In this document: one piece after another, positions 12,047-25,319 of the stretch | Numbering within the stretch: position 1 is the stretch's first letter | How the letters are laid out: the number at the start of each line of letters is the position of its first letter | Virus record (IMG/VR): IMGVR_UViG_2648501787_000014 | Reading direction: 5' to 3' (one strand) | DNA from: a virus | Taxonomy: Duplodnaviria; Heunggongvirae; Uroviricota; Caudoviricetes | Length of the DNA: 25,319 bases | Position numbers and translations under genes: made by a program | Notes under the pieces: generated by a model | Databases searched by the model: none | Told to the model about the DNA's origin: nothing | Seen by the model: only the letters and a program-made list of their open reading frames with translations

Positions 12047-12488
12047 TCTCGTTCTTAAGGCTTTACGAAAAGCCGGGCTGTATTCCAATGCCACGTTGAC
12101 AGATGCTGACCCTCAGGCAATTGAAGATGCCATTAATGACCTCGAAGACATGATGGCAGCATGGCAGGCTAAAGGTATCGAGCTTGGATATCAGTTTGCT
12201 GATACAGAAAACGGCATCATGCCGTTACCTGACGATGATTCAGGTATCCCTGCGTGGGCAAATGATGGCGTCGCTTTGAAGCTCGCTGTGCAAGTGTGCA
12301 TGGATAACGTCATTCAGCCGTCAGATGCTCTCCTTACCGCTGCTGACAGCGCATATCAGACAATCTGCATCGCTTTAACCAAAATACCACCACTTGAGCG
12401 GCGAAATGACATGCCTCGCGGTAGTGGTAACAAAAGCGCGTTTACGTGGAATCGGTTTTACATCGAGAAAGATGATCCAAGTACGTGA
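12027..12488 (+). CDS. Head-to-tail adaptor / tail accessory factor (P22 gp4-like)
   Basis: 153 aa; N-terminus KTKGDLVLKALRKAGLYSNATLTDADPQAIEDAINDLEDMMAAW resembles P22 gp4. Confidence 0.85.
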   Translation: MAKTKGDLVLKALRKAGLYSNATLTDADPQAIEDAINDLEDMMAAWQAKGIELGYQFADTENGIMPLPDDDSGIPAWANDGVALKLAVQVCMDNVIQPSDALLTAADSAYQTICIALTKIPPLERRNDMPRGSGNKSAFTWNRFYIEKDDPST

Positions 12489-12497
12489 GGTGAATAA

Positions 12498-12602
12498 ATG
12501 CCGATTCAGCAACTTCCGCTTATGAAAGGTGTCGGCAAAGACTTTCGAAACGCCGACTATATCGACTATCTGCCAGTGAATATGCTGGCAATTTTGATAT
12601 AA
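12498..12602 (+). pseudogene. Orphaned 5' fragment of gene 10 (34 codons; first 31 are gp10-like), cut off by the homing-endonuclease insertion
   Basis: Encodes [31 protein letters not shown] then ILI-stop; the same N-terminal peptide reappears, recoded, at the start of the intact gene 10 at 13171. Confidence 0.7.
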
Positions 12603-12638: not shown

Positions 12639-13223
12639 ATGCTTTCTGAGAATGCTAAAGATATACCTGGATTTGAAGGTGTTTATGCCGTAACAGAAGA
12701 TGGCAGGGTATATTCTCACTCACGTGTTGTTAAGGCTGCGCATGGCAGCACGCAACTCAGAAAGGGGCGCTGGTTAAAGCCTAAAATCAATCAGGGAAGG
12801 GTGCTTTATAATATCGGAGCAAAATGGACTTTTGCCCATCGAATCGTTGCAATGACATTCCTGCCAAATCCTGAAAACAAGCCTCAGGTAAATCATATTG
12901 ATGGCAATCCACTCAATAATAACGTCAATAATCTTGAGTGGTGCACTCAAAGCGAAAACATCAAACATGCATACGCCACCGGATTAAAGAAACCAATCAA
13001 GTTTTTCGGAACCAAGCACCCAAAACACAAGTTGAGTGATGACGATGTTCTTGCAATCAAGTCATCAAAAGAAAGCTTGTCAGTAATTGCGGCTAAGTAC
13101 GGGATATCTAAGACCTGGGCAAGTAGGCTAAAGCGTGATGCTAACTGGGTTCATATAAAGGTTGATTCCAATGGCAATACAACAACTACCACTAATGAAG
13201 GGATTGGGGAAAAGTGCGGTTAA
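12639..13223 (+). CDS. HNH homing endonuclease (NUMOD4 + HNH_3-type, with C-terminal HTH)
   Basis: IPGFEGVYAVTEDGRVYS (NUMOD4-like) and HRIVAMTF...VNHIDGNPLNNNVNNLEWCTQSEN (HNH) motifs; aaggag RBS; inserted within gene 10. Confidence 0.85.
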   Translation: MLSENAKDIPGFEGVYAVTEDGRVYSHSRVVKAAHGSTQLRKGRWLKPKINQGRVLYNIGAKWTFAHRIVAMTFLPNPENKPQVNHIDGNPLNNNVNNLEWCTQSENIKHAYATGLKKPIKFFGTKHPKHKLSDDDVLAIKSSKESLSVIAAKYGISKTWASRLKRDANWVHIKVDSNGNTTTTTNEGIGEKCG

Positions 13224-21000: not shown

Positions 21001-21347
21001 CTTTATTTGATTAATAATGCATCACTGCGGCCACGCTGCAGCGATTCCTTGTATCTGGAGCAAATTAAATGACAGATATTATAAATAGGAATTGTTATTT
21101 AATAATATTTGAAAATGAAAATCATGGACGATAGGAATAAAAGTAGTACTTGTTATTTTTAAGTGACGCATTAAACGCATAAAGCATATGTCTGTTGATC
21201 AAGATTCTTGCTTGTTGTAAAATAATTGTTTTGTTCATGTTGTATAGTTTTAAAGTGAATAGAAGATTATTTTTCAAAACAATTGCATCTTTGTCTGCAG
21301 TCATTCCGTTTTCTTCAATATCTAAATTTTCAAACAGGATGACTAAT

Positions 21348-22754
21348 ATGCCTGATATAACTCCAAATGTTGTAATTGGGATGCCTTCTCAACTCTTCAC
21401 TATGGCTCGTTCTTTTAAAGCCGTAGCTAATGGCAAAATTTATATCGGTAAAATTGACACTGACCCGGTAAATCCTGAAAACCAGATTCAGGTTTATGTG
21501 GAGAACGAAGACGGCTCTCACGTTCCTGTATCGCAACCAATCATCATTAACGCTGCTGGTTACCCGGTATATAACGGACAGATTGCCAAGTTCGTAACTG
21601 TGCAAGGCCATTCTATGGCTGTATATGATGCGTATGGTGCGCAGCAGTTCTATTTTCCTAATGTGCTGAAGTATGACCCAGAACAATTTAAAGATACACT
21701 TCATTCTGCGAGCGGAGCGGATAATGTTGGATATAGGGGTTATACTGTTAGTGAGTATCTTTCACACACCGCATTGAGTTTTGGTAACTTAAACGATTGT
21801 CTGTCTCATGACAAATACAAGATAGGAGATAAAGTATTTGTACATGGATATAATTATCCATCAGATGGAGGAATGGCTTCATTTGAGGTTGTGTCATCAG
21901 ATGAACCAGTTGGAATAAAAACTTACGATGGTAAGTTTAAGCTAAAGCGAACATCTGGGCATAATTATCTTGAGTTAATAATAAAAAATGGTGCGACGCC
22001 AAAGATAATTGCCCATAGAGGATGGGCAGGAATAACGCCAAATGAATATCAGGGAGCATTGACTGCGCCTGTTTATTTCGTTCCAGAAAATACAAGGGCA
22101 TCAATTAGATTTTGTGCTGAAAGAGGAGCTTTTGGTGTTGAAGGGGATACCAAAATAACATTAGACGGAGTTCCTGTCATATTCCATGATGAGACAGTTG
22201 ATAGAACTACAAATGGTACTGGTGCCGTATCAACATTTACTTTTTTAGAGCTAAAGGCCCTCGATGCTGGATCGTATGTTTCTGGTATTTATGCAGATGA
22301 GAAAATACTCAATTATGATGAATGGATTAGAGAATGCAAGCGTCGCGGAGTAATGCCATTTGTTGAGTGGTCTGCGCCAATGAGTGTCACTCAAGCTGAT
22401 AATTTTCTTGAAACTATAAATAAATATTATGGCACAAAGCCGACGAATGTCTTTGTTTATTCAACATATCCTGCCGTTCTTGAACTGTTGCGTTCAAAAA
22501 ATGCTTATATTGGACTTGGTGTTATACCATCTTACGGTGTCGCACCAACTACAGAACAATTGGAGCTGGCGTATAAGCTTGGCAACTGTGGTATATCTCT
22601 ATCAGGTGGAATAATTACGAATGCCGCTGTTGTAAATTCAGTTAAGAAATATGGTTTGTTGTTGATTTATGCAATTGCTAACACCCCGGCAAGAATTGAT
22701 AATTGCATATCTGCAGGCGTTGATATAATGATTACTGATTGCTATAGAGGGTAA
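21348..22754 (+). CDS. Tailspike: P22-type N-terminal head-binding domain fused to a GDPD (glycerophosphodiester phosphodiesterase) domain
   Basis: N-terminal ~110 aa ([38 protein letters not shown]...[13 protein letters not shown]...[10 protein letters not shown]) match the P22 gp9 head-binding domain. C-terminal half carries GDPD motifs: [32 protein letters not shown]. Confidence 0.8.
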
Positions 22755-22755
22755 A

Positions 22756-23541
22756 ATGAATATAAAAACATATAGACAAATTCATGGTGGTATGAGGTCG
22801 TTTGTTACCACAAGTTTATTCCCTGTTGGGGCGAATAAATTTGACAAATCCGATGCAAGGAAGTCTGTTCTCAGTAAGACATCATCAGATAGTGCGGCGC
22901 TGGAAGTGATGGATTTAGGATGGCTGGCTGCTGGTACATGTATTTCATTTTGCTGTGATATAAAAATAAATACTCAAATGTCTGGTGCACCGTCAATAAG
23001 CATCGAGTCGCGTAATGGCGCAAGGCTAAGTGATGGAAGGAAAATAGTAAACATAGGCACGACTAACTCTAAAGAATGGGAGACAGTGCGTTGTGATTGG
23101 ATTGTGTCTGAGTTTGATAACTGGATAACTCTGTCATATGGGGCTTCTACACCTGTATTGGGACAGTTTGAGTTCAGAAATCCAAGAATTTCTATCACGA
23201 ATGATCAGGCTAGATTGCCTATAAATTTCTCTCTACTCAGATCAGGTAATGTTTGGCGTGTTGATACTGGCACATTTATTTACAATGGAGCTGTATTAGT
23301 ATCAGCAAACGGTGACTCAATAGAGGTTAGTTGGCCATATGTGAACAATATTAGATCACCAATAGTTCACACAACTATAGATACTGGTTTTAGTCTGTTA
23401 TCTGCTGGATGTATATCATGCGGTCCACATTCAGTAAGTAATTCAGGATGCAAAATTCGATTAATTAAACCTGATGGCTCATTTGTAACAGATGTTACAA
23501 ATGGAACGACACTGAGAATTCATGTAAGCGTTAATTATTAA
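22756..23541 (+). CDS. Hypothetical protein (261 aa) coupled to the tailspike; possible receptor-binding accessory
   Basis: Starts 2 nt after the tailspike stop; same AT-rich composition; Ser/Thr/Asn/Gly-rich, beta-like sequence; no TM segment or known motif recognised. Confidence 0.5.
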   Translation: MNIKTYRQIHGGMRSFVTTSLFPVGANKFDKSDARKSVLSKTSSDSAALEVMDLGWLAAGTCISFCCDIKINTQMSGAPSISIESRNGARLSDGRKIVNIGTTNSKEWETVRCDWIVSEFDNWITLSYGASTPVLGQFEFRNPRISITNDQARLPINFSLLRSGNVWRVDTGTFIYNGAVLVSANGDSIEVSWPYVNNIRSPIVHTTIDTGFSLLSAGCISCGPHSVSNSGCKIRLIKPDGSFVTDVTNGTTLRIHVSVNY

Positions 23542-23801
23542 TTCAACATGTGCGCACGTACCCCTATGAACACACGAGTCTTTGAGTTGTGTGATTAATG
23601 AGACACACAAAGCTTTGCACTTGATTGCAAGGCTTTGTGCTCTTCTGTGGATGTGTGGCTACATGTTTGAAGATCGTTGTGTCGTATTTGTGACATACAC
23701 ATGACAACATCATGCATCAACTTTCTGTTTGTGCCATCAACTATAGCTTAGTGAATGCGGTTAATGCTTGCTAAAACAGATAGTTATGATTGGTGCTACA
23801 G

Positions 23802-23847
23802 ATTCGTAATGCGAAGGTCGTAGGTTCGACTCCTATTATCGGCACCA
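23802..23847 (+). other. Partial tRNA-Thr (thrW-like) 3' end: prophage att core (attR)
   Basis: ATTCGTAATGCGAAGGTCGTAGGTTCGACTCCTATTATCGGCACCA is the anticodon-loop-to-CCA portion of enterobacterial tRNA-Thr; the upstream sequence cannot supply the 5' acceptor strand or D-arm. Confidence 0.75.
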
Positions 23848-24001
23848 TTCTAACGTCTCCCCAAGTCTACTCAAGTATTTAAAAACCTCTTATAATCAGT
23901 ATATTAATGCCCCTTTTAGTCTTTTGACGTCTATTTAAGTACCCCAAACTCTACAAGCAATTGAGGGGATTTGCTGTTCAGTTTAGTGGAGATACCCCCA
24001 A

Positions 24002-24340
24002 GTGAAACTCAATGCCCGTCAAATAGACACTGCCAAGCCAAAAGAGAAGGCTTACAAGTTGGCTGATGGTGGTGGTCTGTACCTCCTGGTAAAACCTGGT
24101 GGAGGAGAATATTGGCGTCTCAAGTATCGTGTAGCTGGTAAAGAGAAGCTGTTAGCACTAGGTGTGTATCCTGAGGTCACCTTAGCTGATGCTCCTGCAA
24201 AACTTGAAGAAGCTAAAAGAGGTATCTCTGGGGGAATCGATCTGATGGAAGTGAAGCGCGAGGAAAAGATTGCCCGGGAAACGCAGTTAAACAACACCTT
24301 CAAAGATATTGCCCTTGAGTGGCACAGTAACAAATTATAA
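24002..24340 (+). pseudogene. Truncated P4-type tyrosine integrase (N-terminal arm-binding domain only)
   Basis: GTG-start ORF VKLNARQIDTAKPKEKAYKLADGGGLYLLVKPGGGEYWRLKYR...LALGVYPEVTLADA is a typical P4-family integrase N-terminus but stops after 112 aa, with no catalytic domain. Confidence 0.7.
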
Positions 24341-24770
24341 TCACAATAATAGTGTATATAATTATACATTGTATGCTTGGTAATCATATAATGATAAAAG
24401 CTTCCGATAATCAGTATGAGATTTGTCCTTAAACTCCTGGACATGCTTTTCTAAATCTTCCAATGGTATATGTCCATTTATACAAATAAAATTCTAGTGA
24501 TAAATACCTTCAGGTATGATTAGACAACATCTTTATTCGATGGGGGTTAATCTATATTTGATATCTTTCTTTTAAATAACAACGCCATTAAAAACGCTTT
24601 GTTTAATGACGTTTTTTTATTGTTTCCTATATAAAGCCTAACCAGCATAAACATTGGTGGCTCTTATGCTCATTGTAATTAAATGAGAGTGTGATTAATG
24701 TCTTTATATATTCTGGTAGTTATTCTCTCCAGACGAATACATTGTAAGAAGATGACTGTTAGTATGTTTT

Positions 24771-24810
24771 AACGTCAATTAACATCAATTAACATCAATT
24801 AACATTAAGG
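24771..24810. repeat. Four tandem copies of a 10-bp unit (aacRtcaatt)
   Basis: aacgtcaatt aacatcaatt aacatcaatt aacattaagg; overlaps the last codons and 3' flank of the MarR-like gene. Confidence 0.7.
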
Positions 24811-25289
24811 TTTGATAATAATTTTTTGTTGGCGAGTTCAAATGTTTTCATTTCATCATCTGATAGCCCGCTCCAGATTTTCTTTAGCATTACATTTTGA
24901 GTGTTTATTAGTTTTTGAGCAAGTGTAACTCCGTCAGGGGTTAAGCAAATACTTTTGCTTCGACGATCGTTTTTATTATTAATTCTTTTGGCAATATTCT
25001 TTTTTTCTAATTTGTCTATGATGTGTGTGATGTTTGTTTTGGAGAATTGTAACTCCTTGTAAATATCAGAAGGGGACTGACAATAATCATCAGACATATA
25101 TAATGAAACTAACACCATAAATGTTGAAGTGTTTATTCTATACTCGCTCAATTCATTTTCTATAATACTCTGGATTTTGTCATTTACTCTAATATATAAG
25201 TGTATTAACAGACTCTCCTGAGCCGGGTATGCCGGATTTTTGATTTTTTTGTAGTTTGTTATAGTTTTTAATAAATCTATATTATTCAT
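24795..25289 (-). CDS. MarR-family winged-helix transcriptional regulator
   Basis: MarR-type wHTH segment SPSDIYKELQFSKTNITHIIDKLEKKNIAKRINNKNDRRSKSICLTPDG; very AT-rich. Start taken at the internal Met (MNNIDLL, GGTGG RBS); the track ORF runs to the window edge at 25319. Confidence 0.65.
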   Translation of the reverse strand: MNNIDLLKTITNYKKIKNPAYPAQESLLIHLYIRVNDKIQSIIENELSEYRINTSTFMVLVSLYMSDDYCQSPSDIYKELQFSKTNITHIIDKLEKKNIAKRINNKNDRRSKSICLTPDGVTLAQKLINTQNVMLKKIWSGLSDDEMKTFELANKKLLSNLNVN

Positions 25290-25319
25290 AATTCCACCAC
25301 ACGGCAAAAGAAAACTCAT

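Follow-up and report, generated by a model that had tools for sequence, protein, structure and literature searches.

The closest described systems to the locus that we consider here are the phages and the island that occupy the tRNA gene thrW. Phages P22, ST104 and ST64T have thrW as their integration site (PMC2629481), and the serotype-converting Sf phages of Shigella integrate at the same gene with an attP of 46 bp (PMC3851460). A second group, which includes HK542, HK75, HK446, mEp213, mEp043, mEpX2 and ECP1, is made of HK97/HK022-like siphoviruses in which a region similar to thrW and ptwF is annotated as attP. In E. coli K-12 it is the cryptic prophage CP4-6 that lies between thrW and ptwF. 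A pathogenicity island that encodes Vat has its place beside thrW, according to Parreira and Gyles (2003) as that work is cited in two reviews, and the regulator VatX has also been described (PMC6956023).

The stretch of DNA analysed in this study (the window) has a length of 25,319 nucleotides and comes from the virus record IMGVR_UViG_2648501787_000014; it starts inside a phage. Our reading, to which we assign a probability of about 93%, is that positions 23802 to 23847 are the right junction (attR) of a P22-like (Lederbergvirus-type) prophage in thrW, lying beside an older vat island whose integrase has been cut. An attR in thrW next to the vat island is textbook biology, and the junction is an ordinary right-hand one. 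The features on which the argument is built are the following, with positions in the window and strand in brackets.

21348 to 22754 (+): tailspike gene, 468 aa, with the Pfam domains Head_binding (E 6e-66) and GDPD (E 2e-23).
22756 to 23541 (+): last phage ORF, 261 aa, starting 1 nt after the tailspike stop codon.
23599 to 23801 (+): phage-derived att arm, corresponding to the attP side away from int and absent from empty sites.
23604 to 23673 (-): element resembling lambda sib/tI, with a hairpin at 23606 to 23639, apart from int in the prophage.
23802 to 23847 (+): att core, an exact copy of nt 31 to 76 of thrW and the displaced 3' part of the tRNA gene, with identity to attP reaching 23849.
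23848 to 24001 (+): native spacer downstream of thrW, identical to empty-site strains; it marks the left edge of the vat island and precedes the integrase gene.
24002 to 24340 (+): truncated P4-type tyrosine integrase gene with a GTG start and 112 codons, containing the arm-binding domain only.
24795 to 25319 (-): vatX, encoding the MarR-family regulator of the gene for the Vat autotransporter toxin (Pfam MarR; RefSeq annotation of identical loci).

We consider the core first. The 46-mer ATTCGTAATGCGAAGGTCGTAGGTTCGACTCCTATTATCGGCACCA lies on the plus strand and has its terminal CCA at 23847. All 46 of its nucleotides agree with nt 31 to 76 of the 76-nt E. coli tRNA-Thr(CGU) gene thrW, which is located downstream of proA, and a search of the window that tolerates three mismatches finds the 46-mer a single time (0 matches expected from 100 shuffles). 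No whole tRNA gene is found in the window by ARAGORN, and therefore only the 3' portion of thrW is present; an Rfam scan of positions 23000 to 25319 at a permissive threshold gives sub-threshold chance matches only, the partial copy producing no tRNA match. The identical 46-mer is carried by phage P22, where 14 bp lie between it and the end of int, and by the attP sites of HK542, mEp213 and SfX, and in E. coli K-12 it is present twice, at both ends of CP4-6. The initial annotation, made from the letters of the window, had called this sequence the 3' portion of a thrW-type tRNA-Thr ending in CCA and a target of P22-like integrases. The exact alignment to thrW bears out the former and the copy beside the P22 int gene the latter.

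The arrangement around the core is given by a four-way alignment of the attP of HK542, the attB of strain Trh52, the attL of strain 23CRST013 and the window. The four sequences follow the classical Campbell pattern. A block of 48 bp is common to all of them, being the 46 nt of tRNA plus the two bases TT by which the identity to attP and attB extends past the 46-mer to 23849. The order found in the window (phage arm, core, host flank) is that of attR, and in this way the earlier proposal that the window holds the prophage end with the duplicated core is confirmed. On the phage side, the arm of 203 bp matches, at 96-97% identity, the sequences annotated as attP in HK542, HK75, HK446, mEp213, mEp043, mEpX2, ECP1 and SfX. 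The match to the free-phage attP runs unbroken through the core as far as 23849, arm and core together being 96-97% identical over 251 bp, and the same arm is common to the attR of strains AHB29 and 23CRST013. On the host side, the comparison with empty sites that had been suggested gives a clear result: from 23802 to its right end the window shows 99.9% identity to thrW loci that have no prophage, such as that of strain Trh52. In this unoccupied state the order of the locus is proA, thrW, a truncated integrase (a pseudogene labelled 'Arm DNA-binding domain-containing protein'), vatX (the MarR regulator) and vat. The right boundary of the prophage is thus fixed to the base, with 23801 as the last phage base and 23802 to 23847 (or 23849) as the core. 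The uses of such a boundary are prophage delimitation, strain typing and judging whether the phage could still excise, and it offers little beyond annotation.

Could the 46-mer instead be a direct repeat or pseudo-tRNA that belongs to the vat island or to an older element, the phage genes that end at 23541 being merely a nearby remnant? Partial tRNA copies are a known trace of islands at tRNA genes, CP4-6 of K-12 has the 46-mer at each of its ends, and the thrW locus contains several remnant layers. The 203 bp to the left of the 46-mer, however, are the very sequence that is 96-97% identical to the arm of a free-phage attP, and the homology does not break before the core has been crossed. In the strains that carry the island but not the prophage, moreover, the 46-mer is the plain 3' end of an intact thrW. 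The far end of the island has no second, distal copy of it; none is found there with up to 8 mismatches allowed. We consider this alternative extremely improbable, and continue with the attR of a P22-like prophage.

The junction would then be formed by Campbell-type site-specific recombination, in which the tyrosine integrase of the phage would bring the core of attP together with its identical counterpart in thrW and exchange strands. The phage attP brings with it a copy of 46-48 bp of the tRNA 3' end. After the exchange, the phage copy would complete the tRNA at attL, by int and xis, and the original 3' part of thrW would be moved to attR (23802 to 23847), still joined to its native downstream DNA. 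The tRNA gene would stay intact because the two copies of the core are identical.

A further observation on the core comes from two lysogens that carry the same phage without the island. Their attR cores (L011, positions 12455 to 12500, and L016, positions 2551 to 2596) contain the changes T20G and A34C, which make up a compensatory pair in the T-stem, at core positions 20 and 34. If the attP of the phage is canonical, this suggests that the strand exchange took place to the left of core position 20, within the first 19 nt. The annotated core of P22, which covers positions 8 to 30 of the 46-mer, agrees with a crossover there. As a separate observation on the arm, CGTATTTGTG is located at 23683 to 23692 and has a second copy in the int-side arms of HK542 and 23CRST013; it may be regarded as a candidate arm-type integrase site.

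The outer part of the arm contains a stretch of 70 bp that is about 83% identical to lambda 27473-27536. This piece of lambda is located on the side of attP that faces away from int, some 200-250 bp past the core, and we take it to be the sib/tI retroregulator. The hairpin in the window has a stem of 14 bp, with a predicted energy of -24 kcal/mol (z -3.6) for the minus-strand RNA. In HK542 the geometry relative to int can be seen, and the sib-like element is located beyond attP, away from int. Judged by this resemblance, the element is a homologue of the lambda sib/tI region and may have a regulatory role here. Retroregulation of int by sib has been described (PMC5300877). In the free phage the sib-like element is downstream of int, and in the prophage it is uncoupled from int, as in lambda.

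We turn to the other end of the prophage. The window, starting inside the phage, has no int that tblastn detects with either P22 Int or HK542 Int as the query, and the public contigs with the exact tailspike break about 20 kb upstream of the tailspike; attL, the full thrW and int are known from related genomes. Two complete genomes, those of strains AHB29 and 23CRST013, have the same attR arm. At the far end of their prophages we find proA, a complete thrW, int and an excisionase-like gene, with the site-specific integrase (384 aa) on the opposite strand. The 46-mer is present exactly twice in each genome, one copy at each prophage end, and AHB29 shares the vat-island flank with the window as well. 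The 384-aa Int of these relatives has 99% identity to HK542 Int and only 55% to P22 Int, and so it belongs to the P22 family yet is not P22 Int. By sequence, then, the integrase paired with this arm in the relatives is assigned to the SfX/HK542 subtype of that family. The window itself has a public match: contig SPKU01000019.1 (GCA_049894205.1) is 100% identical to it over 13,972 bp and starts about 1.1 kb to the left of it. Among 5,426 complete E. coli genomes, none covers at least 80% of the window and none carries this exact prophage.

How does this integration module compare with the described ones? With P22 and with the Shigella phages SfX, SfV, SfI, SfII and SfIV it has in common the identical 46-bp tRNA-Thr(CGU) core, the location of int and xis by the core, and the family of the tyrosine integrase. 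It differs from P22 in the SfX/HK542 type of the relatives' Int and in the att arms, and from P22 and the Sf phages together in that a gtr conversion operon is missing between tailspike and attP in the window prophage. With the HK542 group it shares the annotated attP region, but those phages are siphoviruses, whereas here the same integration module is found in the genome of a P22-like podovirus. Such a module in such a genome is ordinary lambdoid mosaicism. CP4-6 of K-12 likewise has the same 46-mer duplicated at the ends of the element, but it differs in gene content and in its integrase (intF), and its int lies by the distal copy. As a candidate for the island seen here CP4-6 is rejected: the core is the same and the element is different.

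Directly beyond the spacer lies the integrase ORF, for which the only Pfam match is Arm-DNA-bind_3 (PF13356, formerly DUF4102; E 9e-24). What the complete gene looks like can be seen in strains ARS-C301, MB10 and D72, in which an intact tyrosine recombinase of 404 aa occupies the same place, 166 bp after thrW, and contains the domains Arm-DNA-bind_3, Phage_int_M and Phage_integrase. The ORF of the window is 92% identical to residues 1 to 112 of this protein. At the DNA level the homology to the intact gene (93%) ends at about 24337, which puts the break at about 24337/24338. The TAA stop codon at 24338 to 24340 is a product of the new junction, and the G+C content at the break falls from about 0.45 to about 0.30. 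Compared with P4 Int, the fragment is 56% identical to residues 5 to 116 (E 1e-34) and the intact thrW-adjacent integrase is 43% identical over the full length (E 2e-117), and these values make the name "P4-type" correct; P22 Int has no meaningful similarity to either the fragment or the intact P4-type integrase. In its three-domain architecture the intact allele resembles P4 Int and the integrases of IntS/Sf6 type, and it is 49% identical to the integrases of Sf6 and CUS-3. The differences are that the copy in the window is without the residues after 112, and that the target is thrW rather than leuX (P4) or argW (Sf6). The initial annotation had described this ORF as the N-terminal domain of a P4-type integrase that ends after 112 aa and had proposed an alignment to full-length relatives as a means of locating the truncation. 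The domain match and the identity to P4 Int agree with that description, and the alignment does locate the point where the homology is lost.

The loss affects most of the protein. The core-binding domain Phage_int_M covers residues 100 to 194 in the intact allele, of which 13 residues are left in the window ORF, and the C-terminal catalytic domain (Phage_integrase, R-H-R-Y) is absent from it, with no other integrase-like sequence found in the window by tblastn. Because everything past residue 112 is gone, the ORF is a remnant and not a working integrase. A deletion or rearrangement would have cut the integrase of the older P4-type element after codon 112 and removed the core-binding and catalytic domains; with these lost, we infer that the island is no longer self-mobile.

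While the fragment is no longer an integrase, it may be asked whether it is retained as an expressed arm-type DNA-binding protein, which could for example interfere with related P4-type integrases at thrW. The start codon is kept, the Arm-DNA-bind_3 domain is intact at the E-value given above, and the ORF has no internal stops. It is also highly conserved across about 540 genomes, and its pairwise dN/dS against the intact alleles is 0.09-0.18, still below 1. The conservation can be explained, however, by a recent spread of the island, and the fragment lineage has the non-conservative changes K36E, R65P, R68L and P81L at positions that are invariant in the intact alleles. Upstream of the fragment, 12 bp of the intact allele are also missing (in comparison with strain ARS-C301), and RefSeq annotates the fragment as a pseudogene. 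Counting changes, we find 6 non-synonymous and 9 synonymous ones on the fragment lineage against 3 and 19 between the intact alleles; this excess of amino-acid changes is a trend to relaxed constraint that is not significant (Fisher p = 0.12). Retention as an expressed protein is very unlikely on this evidence. Less likely again is the more specific proposal that the fragment is kept through its expression and would bind the arm-type sites of related P4-type elements, blocking integration or excision at thrW. If true, the expressed fragment would stabilise the vat island and would leave the tRNA gene open to P22-type phages, whose integrase is unrelated. We return to the decayed remnant as the preferred reading of this ORF.

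The remnant is the left edge of the vat pathogenicity island, and the junction of truncated integrase and vatX is found in about 540 of the 5,426 complete E. coli genomes. Just beyond the window lies vat itself, 1376 aa with the domains Peptidase_S6 and Autotransporter, as can be seen in the 100%-identical contig L012 and in the RefSeq loci. In its place directly after thrW and in its order (integrase remnant, vatX, vat) the island agrees with the VAT-PAI of APEC and UPEC, and the flank in the window is 98.6-99.9% identical to many ExPEC genomes. We find no substantive difference from the VAT-PAI, except that here a prophage lies between the island and the functional thrW. In comparison with the island-free strains that carry the same phage (L011, L016), the island is an insert of 7.2 kb that begins exactly after ...CACCATT. 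A side observation concerns the DNA on the far side of the island. About 6 kb past the right end of the window, on the minus strand of L012 (19731 to 19886), lies a still older remnant, the final 52 codons of an int of P22 type, which has 75% identity to P22 Int and is interrupted by two stop codons, and this remnant is preceded by a P22-like int-side att arm. With a P22-type int remnant beyond the island, there have therefore been at least three layers of integration at thrW in this lineage.

The next question is the order in which the phage and the island arrived. The simplest history is that the island came first, that its integrase was truncated, and that the phage came later; this we infer by parsimony and not from the topology alone. 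The topology alone is also compatible with the opposite order, in which the vat island integrated into the partial thrW copy at attR after the phage and had its integrase truncated later. P4-type integrases recombine within the 3' end of a tRNA gene, and attR keeps that part. Against this order, those roughly 540 complete genomes carry the identical truncated island, with at least 99% identity, and most of them lack this prophage arm. The phage with this tailspike, by comparison, is absent from all 5,426 complete genomes, while the prophage-free island is common among them. The same phage is also present at thrW in strains without the island, and it has 99.9% identity between island-bearing and island-free backgrounds, so that the truncation would have to arise identically in both settings. 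An island that followed the phage is accordingly very improbable. The earlier suggestion that the phage inserted beside a pre-existing tRNA-associated island is supported to the extent that parsimony allows, with the truncated integrase, vatX and vat occurring together, at 99.9% identity, where no prophage is present.

The phage to the left of the junction has a P22-type set of genes, namely terminase, portal, scaffold, coat, gp4, gp10, gp26, gp14, gp7, gp20, gp16 and Mnt. Its tailspike has a head-binding domain (aa 1 to 115) as in P22, followed at aa ~244 to 465 by a GDPD domain that replaces the beta-helix and contains AHRG, EGD and HD motifs. Neither 50,697 phage records nor the 5,426 complete E. 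coli genomes contain a counterpart of the tailspike module over 80% of its length. The exact tailspike protein does occur in draft assemblies, in at least 95 blocks and at thrW in every case. Proteins with GDPD in the tails of Gram-positive phages have been described (PMC10194240). The tailspike here may, as a prediction, cleave a capsule or O antigen that contains glycerol phosphate. The 261-aa ORF that follows it occupies the place of the gtr conversion genes in P22. This ORF has no Pfam or PHROG match and no obvious membrane segments, appears to be rich in beta-strands, and always accompanies the GDPD tailspike in other assemblies.

Some smaller observations concern the same part of the window and its relatives. 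Upstream of the tailspike gene, ATGACAGATATT at 21070 looks like the beginning of a tailspike gene of P22 type (MTDI...). Between it and the true start of the tailspike gene at 21348 lie about 260 bp that are very rich in A+T (G+C about 0.29-0.32), and these contain a 60-aa ORF on the minus strand (21122 to 21304). The stretch from 21070 to 21347 is common to other P22-like prophages of E. coli. Between the gp4 and gp10 genes is an ORF of 194 aa (12639 to 13223, plus strand) that resembles HNH/NUMOD4 homing endonucleases, and it varies among otherwise near-identical copies of the prophage, being present in L010-L012 and absent from L009. In another copy of the same prophage (GCA_001283225.2; L013, positions 87 to 1888) an IS21-family element with istA and istB lies within the gp16 ejection-protein gene, and because of this insertion that copy is probably defective.
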